The notes beneath the pieces were generated by a model, which saw only the letters and a program-made list of their open reading frames with translations, had not been told where the DNA came from and did not search any database. Both the position numbers and the translations under genes were made by a program. From a virus (taxonomy: Duplodnaviria; Heunggongvirae; Uroviricota; Caudoviricetes): a DNA stretch of 11,538 nucleotides. Every line of letters begins with the position of its first letter. The first letter of the stretch is position 1. The stretch lies in IMG/VR virus record IMGVR_UViG_2648501841_000005, one strand, 5' to 3'. Shown here piece after piece: positions 3,172 to 11,538 of the stretch.

Positions 3172-4673
3172 TGGCAATTATTGATGATGTGATCGGCGTG
3201 TTTTCCCCCGGGTGGAAAGCAGCCAGACTGCGTTCAAGGGCGTTAATCATGGCCTATGAGGCGGTGAAACCGACCCGGACACATAAAGCCCGGCGGGAAA
3301 ATCGCTCTGCTGATCAGCTCAGTAAATACGGTGCGGTTTCCCTGCGGGAGCAGGCCCGTTTTCTGGATATCAATCATGACCTGGTGATTGGTGTGTTTGA
3401 CAAGCTGGAAGAGCGGGTGATTGGTGCCAGGGGAATTATTGTGGAGCCTCAGCCATTACGAAAAAACGGGGAAATGGCGGCTGAGCTGGCTGCGGATATC
3501 CGCCGTTTGTGGGCTGAATGGTCCGTGAGTCCGGATGTGACAGGGCAGTATACCCGTCCTGTGCTTGAACGTTTACTGCTGCGGACCTGGCTGCGGGATG
3601 GTGAAGTGTTTGCGCAGATGGTCAGTGGTGCGGGAAACGGTCTGGAACGGACGGCGGGAGTGCCATTCTGGCTTGAGGCGATGGAGCCGGATTTTGTTCC
3701 CATGCGCACTGATGAATCCGCCGGACTGAATCAGGGGGTTTTTCTTGATGAGTGGGGAAGACCGAAAAAATATCTGGTTTATAAAAATTATCCGGTCAGC
3801 GGCCGGCAGAGTGATACGAAAGAAATCGCTGCCGGAAAAATGATCCACCTGAAGTTCACTCGTCGTCTGCATCAGACGCGAGGCTCATCCATGTTATCGG
3901 GGGTGCTGATGCGGATCAGTGCCCTTAAGGAGTATGAGGATGCGGAACTGACAGCGGCGCGTATTGCTGCGGCGCTGGGACTGTATATCCGTAAAGGTGA
4001 CGGACAGGACTATGAAGATCCGGGGAGCAAAGAGACCGAGCGGGAAGTCCATATCACCCCGGGTATTATTTATGACGATTTGCGCAAGGGCGAGGATATC
4101 GGCATGGTCAAATCTGACCGTCCCAATCCCAACCTTGAAACTTTCCGCAACGGCCAGTTGCGTGCAGTGGCAGCAGGCAGTCGTCTGAGTTTTTCCAGTG
4201 CGGCGCGTAACTATAACGGCACCTACAGCGCCCAGCGGCAGGAGTTGGTCGAGTCCACGGATGGTTACCTGATCCTGCAGGACTGTTTTATTGGCGCGGT
4301 AACCCGCCCGGTGTACCGGACATGGCTGAATATGGTGGTTGCGGCAGGTCTGCTGAAAATTCCGGCGGATGTGGAGATGAAAACGCTATATAACGCGACG
4401 TATTCCGGTCCGGTGATGCCGTGGATCGACCCGGTTAAGGAAGCTGAAGCCTGGAGAATTCAGATCCGGGGTGGTGCAGCGACAGAATCTGACTGGGTGC
4501 GTGCTGGTGGGCGCAATCCGGATGAGGTCAAACGTCGCCGCAAGGCTGAAATTGATGAAAACAGCAGACTGGGGCTGGTCTTTGATACTGACCCCGTCAA
4601 CGACAAAGGAGGCAACAGTGCCGGAACTGAACGACAGTATCAGCGCGACACCGAAAGCCAGCATGAAGAATAA
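3171..4673 (+). CDS. Portal protein (lambda B-position portal)
   Basis: 500-aa ORF in the portal position between W and the prohead protease; size is typical of lambda-family portals (lambda gpB is 533 aa). Its ATG overlaps the W stop (TAATG). Family assignment rests on synteny and size; I did not verify the alignment residue by residue. Confidence 0.85.
   Translation: MAIIDDVIGVFSPGWKAARLRSRALIMAYEAVKPTRTHKARRENRSADQLSKYGAVSLREQARFLDINHDLVIGVFDKLEERVIGARGIIVEPQPLRKNGEMAAELAADIRRLWAEWSVSPDVTGQYTRPVLERLLLRTWLRDGEVFAQMVSGAGNGLERTAGVPFWLEAMEPDFVPMRTDESAGLNQGVFLDEWGRPKKYLVYKNYPVSGRQSDTKEIAAGKMIHLKFTRRLHQTRGSSMLSGVLMRISALKEYEDAELTAARIAAALGLYIRKGDGQDYEDPGSKETEREVHITPGIIYDDLRKGEDIGMVKSDRPNPNLETFRNGQLRAVAAGSRLSFSSAARNYNGTYSAQRQELVESTDGYLILQDCFIGAVTRPVYRTWLNMVVAAGLLKIPADVEMKTLYNATYSGPVMPWIDPVKEAEAWRIQIRGGAATESDWVRAGGRNPDEVKRRRKAEIDENSRLGLVFDTDPVNDKGGNSAGTERQYQRDTESQHEE
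4503..4510 (+). other. Chi octamer 5'-GCTGGTGG-3' near the 3' end of the portal gene
   Basis: Exact octamer on the + strand, same orientation as the copy at 1147..1154. Confidence 0.5.
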
Positions 4674-6642
4674 ATCCTGGTTCAGGATGCAGGCTGGGGG
4701 GCCGGGTGACGCGGATATTTATATTTATGACGAGATTGGTTTCTGGGGAGTTACCGCGAAGCAGTTTGTCAGCGAACTGAATGCACTGGGTGATATCACC
4801 CACATTAATCTCCATATCAATTCACCGGGTGGCGATGTCTTTGAAGGCATCGCCATTTTTAATGCCCTGAAAAATCAGGGGGCGACCATTACCGTGTATG
4901 TGGATGGCGTTGCCGCCTCGATGGCATCTGTGATTGCGATGGCCGGTGATACGGTCATTATGCCGGAAAATGCCTTCATGATGATCCATAAGCCATGGGG
5001 ATTCAGTGGCGGGGATGCTGAGGATATGCGCAGTTATGCCGATTTGCTGGATAAAGTCGAATCGGTACTGTTGCCAGCCTATGCGCAGAAAACCGGAAAA
5101 ACCACCGATGAAATTGCCGCCATGCTGGCGGATGAAACCTGGATGTCCGGTGCCGAATGTCTGGCACACGGATTTGCTGACCAGGTGACACCCGCTGTTG
5201 AGGCAATGGCATGTATTCAGTCAAAACGTACAGAGGAATTTAAAAAGATGCCGGAATCCATCCGAAACATGATTACTCCGCCACGCAACAGTGCCCCGCG
5301 TGATACCACAGTGACAATCCCTGCACCGGCGGTAACAGAACCATCACCGGTACCGGCAGTGTCTGATGAGGCGACCATTCGCGCCCGCGTTATGGCAGAA
5401 CAGAAAGCCCACATGTCAGGCATTAACGATCTGTTTGCCATGTTCGGTGGTCGCTATCAGACGCTTCAGGCACAGTGCGTGGCTGATCCTGACTGTTCGC
5501 TGGAAATGGCCCGTGAACGACTGCTGAATGAAATGGGCAAGGAGTCCTCGCCGACCAACAAAAATACACCGGCCCATATTTATGCCGGAAACGGCAATTT
5601 TGTGGGGGACGGGATCCGCCAGGCGATGCTGGCCCGTGCCGGATTTGAAAATGCCGAGAAGGATAACGCCTATAACGGGATGACCCTGCGTGAATGGGCT
5701 CGCATGTCACTGACGGAGCGCGGTATTGGGGTGGCCAGTTATAACCCCATGCAGATGGTCGGGCTGGCGCTGACGCACAGCACCTCTGATTTTGGCAATA
5801 TTCTGCTGGATGTGTCGAACAAGGGGCTGATCCAGGGCTGGGAGGAATCAGAAGAAACCTTCCAGAAGTGGACCCGTAAGGGACGCCTGTCAGACTTCAA
5901 AACAGCGTATCGCGTGGGGATGGGCGGTTTTGGTTCTCTGCGCCAGGTTCGTGAGGGGGCGGAGTATAAATACATCACCACCTCAGATCGCAAGGAGACC
6001 ATTGCACTGGCCACTTACGGGGAGATTTTCTCCATCACCCGCCAGGCCATTATCAATGATGATCTGAATATGCTGGTGGACGTGCCGATGAAGATGGGGC
6101 GTGCGGCGAAGGCAACGATTGGTGACCTGGTCTACAAGGTGCTGACGGATAACCCGAAACTGTCCGACGGTAAGGCGCTGTTCCATGCCGATCACAAAAA
6201 TATTGCCACCGGGGGGATCTCCGTTTCCGGACTGGATGCGGCCCGTCAGATGATGCGCCTGCAGAAAGAAGGCGATCGTGCCCTGAATATCCGTCCGGCC
6301 TTTATGCTGGTACCGGTGGCACTGGAGACGGTGGCGAACCAGACCATCAAATCGGCCAGTGTGAAAGGGGCGGATGCAAACGCCGGTGTCATTAACCCTA
6401 TCCAGAACTTTGCTGAGGTGATTGCAGAAGCGCGTCTTGATGCGGCAGACCCGAAAACCTGGTATCTGGCGGCGGCACAGGGCACTGACACCATTGAAGT
6501 GGCCTGGCTGGATGGTGTGGACACGCCATACATTGATCAGCAGGAAGGTTTCACCACTGACGGCATTGCCACAAAAATCCGTATTGATGCCGGAGTGGCA
6601 CCACTTGACTGGCGCGGGCTGGTGCGTTCGTCGGTGGCCTGA
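4618..6642 (+). CDS. Prohead protease (ClpP/S49-like) - scaffold-like linker - major capsid protein fusion polyprotein
   Basis: Single long ORF. The N-terminal domain carries ClpP-type motifs: INSPGGDV, catalytic-Ser context GVAASMAS (Ser codon 4918..4920) and His context MMIHKPWG (His codon 4987..4989). The middle is Pro-rich and coiled-coil-like (about 5180..5580). The C-terminal roughly 350 aa is major-capsid-like by size and position. The track ORF begins at GTG 4471, but AAGGAGG (4606..4612) 5 nt before in-frame GTG 4618 is the best start; ATG 4663 is an alternative. The ORF overlaps the portal gene's 3' end. Confidence 0.85.
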   Translation: MPELNDSISATPKASMKNKSWFRMQAGGPGDADIYIYDEIGFWGVTAKQFVSELNALGDITHINLHINSPGGDVFEGIAIFNALKNQGATITVYVDGVAASMASVIAMAGDTVIMPENAFMMIHKPWGFSGGDAEDMRSYADLLDKVESVLLPAYAQKTGKTTDEIAAMLADETWMSGAECLAHGFADQVTPAVEAMACIQSKRTEEFKKMPESIRNMITPPRNSAPRDTTVTIPAPAVTEPSPVPAVSDEATIRARVMAEQKAHMSGINDLFAMFGGRYQTLQAQCVADPDCSLEMARERLLNEMGKESSPTNKNTPAHIYAGNGNFVGDGIRQAMLARAGFENAEKDNAYNGMTLREWARMSLTERGIGVASYNPMQMVGLALTHSTSDFGNILLDVSNKGLIQGWEESEETFQKWTRKGRLSDFKTAYRVGMGGFGSLRQVREGAEYKYITTSDRKETIALATYGEIFSITRQAIINDDLNMLVDVPMKMGRAAKATIGDLVYKVLTDNPKLSDGKALFHADHKNIATGGISVSGLDAARQMMRLQKEGDRALNIRPAFMLVPVALETVANQTIKSASVKGADANAGVINPIQNFAEVIAEARLDAADPKTWYLAAAQGTDTIEVAWLDGVDTPYIDQQEGFTTDGIATKIRIDAGVAPLDWRGLVRSSVA

Positions 6643-8374: not shown

Positions 8375-9164
8375 ATGGCAACACCAAATCCCCTTGAGCC
8401 GGTAAAAGGTGCCGGTCCCACTCTGTGGGTTTACAACGGCAAGGGTGATGCTTATGCAAACCCGTTGTCAGACGATGACTGGCAGCGANNNNNNNNNNNN
8501 NNNNNNNNNNNNNNNNNNNNNNNNNNNNNNNNNNNNNNNNNNNNNNNNNNNNNNNNNNNNNNNNNNNNNNNNNNNNNNNNNNNNNNNNNNNNNNNNNNNN
8601 NNNNNNNNNNNNNNNNNNNNNNNNNNNNNNNNNNNGTCTGCAGGAGATACCAGTTTTACGCTGGCCTGGAAACCGGGAGAAGAAGGTCAGAAAGGGCTTA
8701 TAGGCTGGTTTGAAAGCGGGGATGTGCGGGCCTATAAAATCCGTTTCCCAAATGGCACGGTGGATGTGTTCCGTGGCTGGGTCAGCAGTATCGGTAAGGC
8801 CGTGACGGCGAAAGAAGTGATCACCCGCACGGTGAAAGTCACTAACGTGGGCAAACCTTCCGTGGCGGAAGAACGCAGCGAAATTACGCCGGCCACTGCA
8901 ATTAAGGTGACACCGACATCCGGTACGGTGGCAAAAGGGAAAACAACCACCCTGACGGTTTCTTTTGAGCCGGAAAGTGCAACAGACAAGACGTTCAGAG
9001 CGGTTTCCGCCGATCCGTCGAAAGCCACCATTAGTGTGAAAGATATGACAATTACGGTAAACGGCGTGGCGACAGGTAAGGTGCAGATCCCTGTGGTGAG
9101 CGGAAATGGTCAGTTCGCCGCAGTGGCTGAAGTCACCGTTACTGAAGCGGGCGCTGCAGGGTAA
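8375..9164 (+). CDS. V: Major tail protein (lambda gpV family) with C-terminal Ig-like domain; interrupted by a 147-nt N gap
   Basis: The N-terminal part ([19 protein letters not shown]...PLSDDDWQR) and the post-gap part ([11 protein letters not shown]...[41 protein letters not shown]...) both match recalled lambda gpV closely. The two parts are in different frames across the N run, so the true gap length is not 147. Confidence 0.85.
8489..8635. other. Assembly/masking gap (147 N) inside the major tail gene
   Basis: Continuous run of n read directly from the sequence; flanked on both sides by gpV-homologous coding sequence in different frames. Confidence 0.95.
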
Positions 9165-9177
9165 ACGGAGGTCATAC

Positions 9178-9600
9178 ATGTTTCTGAAAACAGAACAATT
9201 TGAATATAACGGTGTGTCCGTCACGCTTTCCGAATTGTCTGCGCTGCAGCGGTTTGATTATATGAAGTTTGTTTCAGACGCAGAACAACAGAAGACAACG
9301 AAGCATGATGTCGTGCGCATTAACCAGCGATATCTGGAAACGGCATCCCTGCTTGTGGCGATGTCGCTATGGCATTCCCATTCCCTCAAAGGCACTCTGG
9401 CCTCTCCGGAGACAGAGATGCAGCAGATCCGCCGTGAAGTGATGCTGGGATGGCCTGCTGATGCACTGAATCAGGCAACGAACCGGGTGCTTTATCTTTC
9501 AGGTATGCTGGATAACCGGCACGATGCCGATCCTGAACCAACCGGGAAAACAGAAGCGACTGAGCCGGTAACATCAAAAAAGCATTCGAAGGCGAGCTGA
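9178..9600 (+). CDS. G: Tail assembly chaperone (lambda gpG family)
   Basis: MFLKTEQFEYNGVSVTLSELSALQR matches the recalled lambda gpG start MFLKTESFEHNGVTVTLSELSALQR. GGAGG at 9166..9170 sits 7 nt before ATG 9178. The track ORF extends upstream to 9106, overlapping V; I reject that extension. Confidence 0.9.
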   Translation: MFLKTEQFEYNGVSVTLSELSALQRFDYMKFVSDAEQQKTTKHDVVRINQRYLETASLLVAMSLWHSHSLKGTLASPETEMQQIRREVMLGWPADALNQATNRVLYLSGMLDNRHDADPEPTGKTEATEPVTSKKHSKAS

Positions 9601-9935
9601 ACTTTGTCCTGAAACTGGCGCGTGAGATGGGGAGAGCCGACTGGCGCGCCATGCTTGCCGGGATGACATCCACCGAATATGCCGACTGGCACCGTTTTTA
9701 CCGCACGCATTATTTTCAGGATACCCAGCTGGATATGCATTTTTCCGGGCTGACGTACGCTGTACTCAGCCTGTTTTTTTGCGATCCGGATATGCATCCG
9801 GCGGATTTCAGCCTGTTCGCTCCGGAGGCAGAGGAAGGACAGGCGGAGACGCCGGACGAAAATGATGTACTGATGCAGAAGGCGGCGGGCCTCGCCGGTG
9901 GAGTCCGTTTCGGGGAGGAGGGAAGGAGGTTGTGA
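9178..9935 (+). CDS. T: Tail assembly chaperone G-T fusion (lambda gpGT family), made by -1 frameshifting at 9576..9582
   Basis: The downstream T ORF (track 9627..9935) is in the -1 frame relative to G and that frame is open from the slippery site onward. The conserved G/G-T arrangement sits directly upstream of the tape measure gene, as in lambda. Confidence 0.75.
9576..9582 (+). promoter_or_regulatory. Programmed -1 ribosomal frameshift slippery heptamer A_AAA_AAG (G to G-T)
   Basis: The heptamer sits in the gpG zero frame (TCA AAA AAG) 6 codons before the G stop. The -1 frame is open from here through the T ORF to the stop at 9933..9935, with no stop between 9576 and 9627. Confidence 0.7.
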
Positions 9936-9978
9936 CAGTTATTGATGGTATCAGAGGACATTTCAGGAGGTGACCACG

Positions 9979-11538
9979 ATGGCAGGTAATTTTGCCGATC
10001 TGACAGCCGTGCTGACACTGGATTCTGCCCGTTTTTCTGAAGAGGCAGCGCGGGTAAAAAAAGAGCTGGGTGAAACCAGTGCGCTTGCTGATTTGATGTC
10101 CGGGAAAGTCAGTCAGTCTTTCAGAAAACAGGCTGATGCTGCTGAGCAGAGTCTGAGCCGACAGGCGCTGGCGGCACAAAAAGCCGGGATATCAGTCGGA
10201 CAGTATAAGGCTGCCATGCGCACACTGCCCGCACAGTTCACGGATATTGTCACTCAGCTTGCCGGTGGTCAGAATCCCTTCCTTATCATGCTGCAGCAGG
10301 GGGGGCAGATCAGCGATTCATTCGGTGGACCGCTCAGCCTGCTTACCCTGCTGAAGGAGGAACTTCTCGGGATCAGGGATGCCTCTGAATCATCAGAGGA
10401 GTCGCTGTCAGATACGGCAAATGCACTGGCTGAAAATGCCCGGAATGCCGGTGAGCTGGGACGATTTATGTCGGTGGCCCGTGTGGCGGCAGGTGGCGGG
10501 GTTGCCGTACTGGCCGCGCTTGCTGCCGCCGCCTGGCAGGCAGAGCAGGCTGACCGGGCCTTATTGCGTTCACTGATCCTGACCGGAGGGGCGGCTGCCA
10601 CCACAACGGCAGAATTGTGGAAAATGGCCGGGGTGATCAGCGATGAAGCCGGTGGTGGTATCAGACAGGCGGCAGAAAATCTGGCCCGTCTGGCAGAAAG
10701 CGGGAAATATACCGCCGGGCAGCTACGGATCATGGGGGAAACCTCTCAGAGATGGCTGCAGACGGTGGGGGACGATGCCGGGAAGGTGGAAAAAGCCTTT
10801 GAAGGGATTGCAGCAGATCCGGTGAAGGCGCTGGCCTCCCTGAATCAGCAGTATAACTTCCTGAGCGTTTCCCAGTTACGCCATATTGATGAGCTTGAGC
10901 GCACGAAAGGTAAACAGGCTGCGGTGACGGAGGCGATGTCCCTGTTTGCGGATGTCATGAATGCACGTCTGGAGCAACTTGATAAAGCGGCCACGCCGGT
11001 GGAAAAAATCTGGGACGATGTTAAAACCTGGACTTCTGACGCATGGGCATGGATAGGTGATCATACACTGGGGGCACTCAGTCTGATCACTGACGTGGTG
11101 GCCGGAACCGTTGAACAAGTGAAGCTGCTGCTTGTGCAGGGGGATCTGGCGCTGGCTGAATTTATTCAGTCAGCCTGGGAAACGACAAAGAATGTGCCCG
11201 GCGTTGGTGCGTTGTTTGGTGAACTGGCAGAAGAGAACCGCGTATTTATTGAGAAAACAAAACGCGATGAACTGGCGCTGAGAAAATCCATTGCGGAACG
11301 GGATGCGCGTATACGCCAGGGGGAAATGGGGTACATCAACCGCTCGCGTGCAACAGGCGTCAGCAAAGGTCCGGGGCAGCAGGAAGCCGTCAGCCGTCTG
11401 GCTGAAGAGCTGACAGGTAAAAAGCATACATCACCGAAAACGCGCTCTGCCGGGGAGAGGGAAGAGGAGCAGGCAAGAGAGGCTCTGCTTGCCCTTGAAG
11501 CTGAGCTCAGGACGCTGGAAAAACACAGCGGTGCGAAT
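9979..11538 (+). CDS. H: Tail tape measure protein (lambda gpH family), 5' partial, truncated by the window end
   Basis: Open frame from ATG 9979 to the window end (520 codons, no stop). Multiple blocks match recalled lambda gpH: SLSRQALAAQKAGISVGQYKAAMR, LPAQFTD, TQLAGGQ, LQQGGQ, SDSFGG and, near the window end, LLALEAELRTLEKHSGAN (lambda LLTLQAELRTLEKHAGAN). GGAGG lies 10 nt upstream. Confidence 0.92.
   Translation, partial: MAGNFADLTAVLTLDSARFSEEAARVKKELGETSALADLMSGKVSQSFRKQADAAEQSLSRQALAAQKAGISVGQYKAAMRTLPAQFTDIVTQLAGGQNPFLIMLQQGGQISDSFGGPLSLLTLLKEELLGIRDASESSEESLSDTANALAENARNAGELGRFMSVARVAAGGGVAVLAALAAAAWQAEQADRALLRSLILTGGAAATTTAELWKMAGVISDEAGGGIRQAAENLARLAESGKYTAGQLRIMGETSQRWLQTVGDDAGKVEKAFEGIAADPVKALASLNQQYNFLSVSQLRHIDELERTKGKQAAVTEAMSLFADVMNARLEQLDKAATPVEKIWDDVKTWTSDAWAWIGDHTLGALSLITDVVAGTVEQVKLLLVQGDLALAEFIQSAWETTKNVPGVGALFGELAEENRVFIEKTKRDELALRKSIAERDARIRQGEMGYINRSRATGVSKGPGQQEAVSRLAEELTGKKHTSPKTRSAGEREEEQAREALLALEAELRTLEKHSGAN

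Follow-up and report, generated by a model that had tools for sequence, protein, structure and literature searches.

The tail-gene region analysed here very probably harbours a ribosomal -1 slip site of the phage lambda type, A_AAA_AAG at positions 9576-9582 of the plus strand, at which a few percent of the ribosomes translating the chaperone gene G would pass into the T frame and produce a G-T fusion protein for tail assembly. Positions are those of the window, by which we mean the whole stretch of 11,538 nt of tailed-phage DNA that was analysed; the features of the tail-gene locus lie on its plus strand, and contigs used for comparison are referred to by L numbers.

The tail-gene locus

Over the 901 nt around the G-T junction, the window shares 99.0-99.4% identity with Stx-converting lambdoid phages and prophages found in enterohaemorrhagic E. 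coli, VT1-Sakai among them. Across the window, Pfam matches were found to a gpA-type terminase, a lambda-family portal, a ClpP-protease/capsid fusion, a cement protein, Z, U, V, G, T in the -1 frame, and H, and on sequence grounds the window is a Shiga-toxin-phage, VT1-Sakai-like lambdoid tail-gene block with the canonical V-G-T-H order. The gene of the major tail tube protein V (8412..9164; Pfam Phage_TTP_12 and Big_2), to which the VT1-Sakai annotation maps, lies directly 5' of G. Gene G (9178..9600) encodes in the zero frame a tail assembly chaperone of 140 aa, the translation of which matches Phage_TAC_2 (PF06894) above the Pfam cut-off (E = 4.3e-34); its start codon, ATG 9178, stands 8 nt past a GGAGG Shine-Dalgarno sequence, and its stop codon is the TGA at 9598-9600. 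The T segment that would be read in the -1 frame after a slip (9582..9935) translates into 117 aa, AFEGELNF...GEEGRRL, shows codon periodicity and ends with the TGA at 9933-9935; the T-frame product matches Phage_tail_T (PF06223) with an E value of 4.8e-14. The 5' part of the tape measure protein gene H (9979..11538; Pfam TMP_2, E = 4e-48) runs off the window and is preceded by a strong Shine-Dalgarno sequence, AGGAGGTG. We take the H tape measure protein to be the client of the G/G-T chaperone.

In the head-gene part of the window, a single ORF of 723 aa (4471-6642) contains both a ClpP-type protease domain (residues 95-240) and a Phage_capsid_4 major capsid domain (residues 429-720). By its domain content it is a protease-capsid fusion head gene, in contrast to the separate C, Nu3 and E genes of lambda. 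Since the 5' end of this ORF overlaps the portal ORF, its true start is probably further downstream.

Register and position of the slippery heptamer

The 3' codons of G, ACA TCA AAA AAG CAT TCG AAG GCG AGC TGA, place the heptamer in the X_XXY_YYZ register, with Lys134 (AAA) and Lys135 (AAG) as its zero-frame codons, and an automated scan of the G/T overlap returned A_AAA_AAG as the only canonical heptamer in register. The first-pass annotation of this DNA had proposed the same slip site as the correctly phased one, and both the codon phasing and the overlap scan confirm it. On the 5' side, the region in which a shift could take place is limited by the TGA at 9561-9563, the last -1-frame stop before T. 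The -1 frame is open from 9564 to 9935, in agreement with the earlier statement that it is open through T, and reads NIKK AFEGELNF, i.e. KK AFEGELNFVLKLAREMGR past the heptamer; the junction predicted previously, TSKK-AFEGELNF, is likewise obtained by translation. As for the distance to the end of G, the site had been described as lying 6 codons from the stop, which is right insofar as the stop occupies the sixth codon position past AAG, but only five sense codons (CAT TCG AAG GCG AGC) stand between them.

As a bare motif, the heptamer is not enriched in the whole window (3 found vs 1.7 expected), and the bare count is not above chance; the significance of the site comes from its register, position and homology. 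The G/T overlap contains just 10 in-register positions. A canonical heptamer of any kind would fall into one of them by chance with a probability of ~4%, and one of the three E. coli heptamers with the highest efficiency with a probability of ~0.2%. Another AAAAAAG, at 10057-10063 inside H, is phased AAA_AAA_G, so it is not a -1 tandem-slip site.

A second candidate, GGGAAAA at 9544-9550, was rejected as a real slip site. It is phased GGG_AAA_A (zero-frame codons ACC GGG AAA ACA), which is the wrong register for a -1 tandem slip, as had been recognised in the first-pass annotation, and the -1-frame TGA at 9561-9563 lies downstream of it. Being both out of register and before a -1-frame stop, this sequence cannot lead into T. 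Many relatives of the same lineage (contigs L057, L013 and L016 among them) carry at a distance of 32 nt 5' of the real site the sequence GGGAAAG, which has the letters of the lambda heptamer. This look-alike is phased GGG_AAA_G, also lies before the -1-frame stop, and could mislead motif-based frameshift finders.

Comparison with phage lambda

The -1 frameshift that joins lambda G to T was reportedly described by Levin, Hendrix and Casjens in 1993 and by Xu, Hendrix and Duda in 2004, 2013 and 2014. The end of G in lambda (J02459) reads gag cct gtt tct gcG GGA AAG tgt tcg acg gtg agc tga, and the window, aligned to it, reads gag ccg gta aca tcA AAA AAG cat tcg aag gcg agc tga. The AAG of the heptamer is the 135th of the 140 codons of G at either locus, with five further codons before TGA, and the -1-frame peptides after the site, VFDGELSFALKLAREMGRPDWRAML (lambda) and AFEGELNFVLKLAREMGRADWRAML (window), are homologous as well. 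The earlier claim that A_AAA_AAG takes the place of G_GGA_AAG of lambda is thus supported by a codon-for-codon alignment at the mapped lambda site. The two loci further share the V-G-T-H gene order, the Pfam families PF06894 and PF06223, AAG as the A-site codon, and the lack of an evident strong stimulator. They differ in the P-site codon together with the base preceding it (A_AA in the window, G_GG in lambda), which gives a Lys-Lys junction instead of Gly-Lys, and in the T part after the slip, which comprises 117 aa and does not overlap H in the window, whereas it comprises 144 aa in lambda. The T proteins are 76% identical in amino acid sequence, whereas the G proteins are just 41% identical. 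All sequence-level features that define the lambda G/G-T system are present at the locus, for which a G-T fusion is predicted.

The drop in identity to lambda from 76% over 9582-9935 (T) to 41% over 9178-9582 (G) marks the slip site as a mosaic joint, and the type of heptamer goes with the upstream G allele. One contig, L058, is a recombinant (positions 1455-1560 of that contig), in which GGGAAAG is followed by window-type sequence downstream. The G_GG and A_AA forms are separated by three substitutions, which are tied to one divergent G allele. It seems to us unlikely that the change from G_GG to A_AA is non-neutral, with the G-T:G ratio retuned by it, and that the slip site is also a preferred recombination joint of exchangeable G and T modules. 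Such retuning could proceed through the Lys-Lys pair in the P and A sites, the 3' C context, or minor transcriptional slippage on the run of six A, and it could suit the different G domain, the shorter T and the different tape measure protein of this lineage.

Translation of the T reading frame

In the database records, T is presented as a separate gene starting at ATG 9627 (9627..9629), in which case no fusion would be made. An ORF with this start codon, 9627-9935, does exist, and all the records examined annotate T in this way. Nevertheless, we consider a separate T gene extremely unlikely. Its putative start encodes a Met inside the T frame (LAREMGR) and is not a credible initiation site. 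No Shine-Dalgarno sequence precedes ATG 9627: its duplex with the anti-Shine-Dalgarno sequence amounts to -2.3 kcal/mol, compared with -10.2 kcal/mol for the start of G and -11.6 kcal/mol for that of H. In the phi80, mEp237, mEp460, Klebsiella and Providencia relatives the same codon is a Phe codon (TTC or TTT). Moreover, the 15 codons 5' of ATG 9627 are conserved as protein in the T frame. In an alignment of 12 sequences, variability peaks at the third position of the -1 frame all the way from the heptamer across the G stop to ATG 9627, with third-position entropies of 1.10 and 0.82 vs 0.30-0.67 at the first and second positions. RefSeq itself flags the ORF as incomplete and, according to the account of Levin et al. 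1993 that is given in PMC5009743, the homologous T of lambda is made only as the G-T fusion.

The coding signal of the T frame, in terms of both periodicity and protein conservation, begins at the heptamer, and the comparison of relatives supports the view that the stretch 9582-9626 would be translated in the -1 frame through the site. Independent initiation of T, which the first-pass annotation had singled out as the counter-case to its proposal, therefore has the comparative evidence against it, with no Shine-Dalgarno sequence at the ATG and a Phe codon in its place in relatives.

The T of the window is a short form: its 117 aa after the slip contain the LMQKAAGxAGGVRFG motif once, and it is separated from H by 43 nt (9880-9978). 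In 42 of the 69 contigs of the same lineage, T is 152 aa long, contains MMASAGISGGVRY as a second motif and, like that of lambda, abuts H. RefSeq labels the short T as 'incomplete; missing C-terminus'.

The locus might also be regarded as a decaying prophage remnant, in which the heptamer and the T frame are out of use: T is marked as a pseudogene in RefSeq, U, V and H are frameshifted in one genome, and the window T is without the second C-terminal repeat found in those 42 contigs. We find decay exceedingly improbable, given that the genes from terminase to H are all intact ORFs in the window with full-length Pfam matches, and that phage ASU11 (obtained by mitomycin C induction, according to the source given in its record) and many genomes of Stx-converting phages have a T of the same short form. 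The T proteins of the phi80 type are equally short.

Stimulatory elements and the dnaX cassette

The 65-nt segment 9576-9640, comprising the heptamer and the following 58 nt, folds worse than its shuffled versions (z = +1.9), and longer segments give marginal folds by way of long-range pairings (z = -2.0 for 9583-9682 and z = -1.7 for 9583-9732). The only hairpin kept in the consensus fold of the 12 sequences is a GC-rich one, GGCGCG...CGCGCC (9616..9651), located 34 nt 3' of the heptamer. A stimulatory role of this hairpin was rejected as unsupported: its covariation score of +0.18 indicates none, its pairs are disrupted in the two sequences that diverge most, and it lies too far from the heptamer. 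The hairpin coincides with the conserved peptide LAREMGRxDWRAM. A search of Rfam yielded no match at E values up to 5. Hence, the check for downstream stimulatory RNA structure that had been proposed earlier ended without support for any such structure from the folds, covariation or Rfam. No upstream stimulator resembling a Shine-Dalgarno sequence was found either: within a 17-nt stretch whose 3' end lies 4 nt ahead of the heptamer, the best anti-Shine-Dalgarno duplex amounts to -4.4 kcal/mol and the GGAG/AGGA core is absent.

In the dnaX cassette, a Shine-Dalgarno-like stimulator is situated ~10 nt upstream of the heptamer and a stable stem-loop ~5-8 nt downstream, and the efficiency reaches ~50%. 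The site in the window had been called the same heptamer as that of dnaX. This holds for the heptamer itself, since A_AAA_AAG is identical to that of dnaX tau/gamma and is decoded by the one tRNA-Lys of E. coli; it does not extend to the dnaX stimulators, which were looked for and not found. Thus, dnaX has two stimulators, ~50% frameshifting and a shifted product that is the shorter one, whereas in the window neither stimulator was found, a few percent would be expected, and the shifted product would be the longer one. Judged by these searches, the window site shares the heptamer alone with dnaX, without the architecture of the dnaX cassette.

Proposed mechanism and level of frameshifting

The following course of translation may be proposed. 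Most ribosomes on G would terminate at TGA 9598 and release the 140-aa G protein, whereas in a few percent of cases the tRNA-Lys on AAA in the P site and that on AAG in the A site would slip back by one base. Both tRNAs would then re-pair with AAA AAA, and translation would resume in the -1 frame with GCA TTC GAA and continue to TGA 9933. The product would be a G-T fusion of 252 aa, composed of G residues 1-135 and the 117 aa of T, which would be joined at PVTSKK/AFEGELNF. If the analogy with lambda holds, the tape measure protein H would be coated by G and by the G part of G-T, the T part would recruit the tube protein V, and the heptamer would fix the low G-T:G ratio.

The slip-prone nature of such a site is understandable from the E. 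coli decoding apparatus, as the only tRNA-Lys of this host (mnm5s2UUU) pairs better with AAA than with AAG, and this preference makes N_NNA_AAG sequences shifty in E. coli (PMC5009743). In the E. coli reporters of Sharma et al. 2014, frameshifting at A_AAA_AAG was 0.29% with no stimulator, 4.26% with the IS911 stimulators and 39.0% with the IS3 pseudoknot, and the values for G_GGA_AAG in the same three contexts were 0.28%, 3.80% and 43.0% (PMC4066793, Table S3). Because these efficiencies are equal, the two heptamers are functionally interchangeable in E. coli. The present locus and lambda form a natural pair of two heptamers rated equally efficient by reporter data.

The G:GT ratio in lambda is ~30:1 and is required for assembly (PMC5009743), and by analogy the window site should give roughly the same ~30 G to 1 G-T. 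It is plausible that a low G-T:G ratio is set by the heptamer here as well, judging from lambda and from the equal published efficiencies of the two heptamers. That the G-T fusion is made, the level at which it is made and its role in assembly we infer from the same analogy. Since the bare heptamer gives ~0.3% in the reporter, a lambda-like few percent needs an extra context effect; no local structure, covariation or upstream Shine-Dalgarno sequence that would lift the level of the bare heptamer was found.

The same junction could also arise during transcription, as the heptamer contains six consecutive A and the addition of one A to the mRNA by slipping RNA polymerase would give TCA AAA AAA GCA; transcriptional slippage is a known route to such products (PMC5009743). 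As the main source of G-T it is, however, very improbable in our opinion, since transcriptional slippage is efficient only with runs of usually ~8-9 or more (PMC3711429), and relatives with runs of three A (G_GGA_AAG) or four A (G_GAA_AAG) keep the ribosomal slip pattern and register. Such register-specific conservation is predicted by ribosomal slippage and not by transcriptional slippage. At the run of six A, both processes would lead to an identical protein (TSKK-AFEG) and be indistinguishable by proteomics.

Precedents and annotation

A passage in Lynch et al. 2012 (PMC3483164) gives AAAAAAG as the G-T site of VT1-Sakai, citing Xu, Hendrix and Duda 2004. VT1-Sakai is prophage Sp15 of E. 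coli O157:H7 Sakai, and its G-T region is in effect the element seen in the window: 8 of the 758 nt of G-T differ, and the junction (9540-9640) is identical. The prediction of the site there is likewise computational. The A_AAA_AAG variant of the G-T site and its mechanism have already been described, and the frameshift is an ordinary one of the lambda type. The main value of the present analysis lies in annotation, and no new question is opened by it.

In the GenBank record of VT1-Sakai (AP000400), G and T are annotated separately. None of the six records of this allele contains an annotated join or slippage feature; T is given either from the internal ATG or, in RefSeq, as an incomplete pseudogene. 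Such annotation of T as a separate gene or a pseudogene reflects ORF callers rather than data. The proper annotation would be a predicted 252-aa G-T fusion with ribosomal slippage at 9582. The allele is common in prophages of pathogenic E. coli, with at least 460 RefSeq replicons matching the 901-nt query at 95% identity or higher.

Frameshifting of 6-7% was reported for two genes of an HK97-like prophage tail-chaperone cluster that had been chosen for their A-rich heptamers (Antonov et al. 2013, PMC3711429). Another recorded case of A_AAA_AAG is ECs1801 of prophage Sp9 (cluster A_AAA_AAG_25; Sharma et al. 2014, PMC4066793), which resembles the window gene in the heptamer, the host and the functional class, a chaperone pair encoded between the tube and tape-measure genes. 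In ECs1801, however, the stop codon follows immediately on the heptamer (AGA AAA AAG TAG, positions 20362-20376 of contig L085), and a BLASTP comparison of the window G with ECs1801 revealed no detectable similarity (E = 23). ECs1801 was rejected as a precedent for the gene in the window, as it belongs to a non-homologous chaperone family, and is a precedent for the heptamer alone. The -1 frame of ECs1801 runs 101 codons past its stop, and this pair is likewise annotated as two separate genes.

Conservation of the site among relatives

A pattern scan found A_AAA_AAG in this context in 69 viral contigs. All of them represent one lineage, because their G alleles are 87-100% identical to that of the window; the heptamer is invariant across them, while the flanking bases vary. 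The 84 viral contigs retrieved by T similarity all have either G_GGA_AAG or A_AAA_AAG at the aligned position. A species-level scan was carried out with one genome per species, the site being read 42 nt before the conserved ARE codons. It gave G_GAA_AAG at 42 loci, G_GGA_AAG at 20 (of which 16 are almost certainly lambda DNA contaminating unrelated assemblies), G_GCA_AAA at 2 and G_GGA_AAA at 1, and the more distant loci of Morganella, Proteus and Pantoea have A_GAA_AAG, G_GAA_AAG and G_GTA_AAG. In different relatives, the G stop is found 0, 1 or 5 codons past the site, while the A_AAG/A_AAA core stays put, and a slip-prone N_NNA_AAR sequence is kept at this position in every relative examined. 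The comparison with the G/T junctions of related phages, suggested in the first-pass annotation, thus bears out its proposal, a slip-prone heptamer being kept at the same position.

The G-T genes of the phi80/N15 type have homologous G and T and a site with the A_AAG core at the same aligned position. Their heptamer is, however, the non-canonical G_GAA_AAG, the commonest form across species, in which re-pairing of the P-site tRNA-Glu on GGA requires a G·U pair at the middle position. The loci with this or another non-canonical heptamer include 1208-1214 of L087 (phi80) and 1199-1205 of L095 (mEp237), and further ones in L090, L089, L091 and L092 as well as within L115-L175. As the A_AAG/A_AAA core is the only invariant part, the alignment suggests that A-site slippage may carry most of the shift in the G-T family.

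The species-level scan also led to an observation on the assemblies themselves. The 16 'genomes' of unrelated taxa mentioned above contain contigs that are 99.6-100% identical to phage lambda (L101-L107, L109-L114, L116, L134, L136 and L160). The taxa concerned include Neobacillus, Oceanobacillus, Kitasatospora, Chromatium, Shewanella and Pseudomonas, as well as Paenibacillus, Enterococcus, Leeuwenhoekiella, Pseudoxanthomonas and Psychrobacter. Several of these contigs are ~48.4-48.5 kb long or have very low coverage stated in their names, and the lambda-like contigs in the 16 unrelated assemblies are almost certainly contamination with lambda control DNA.
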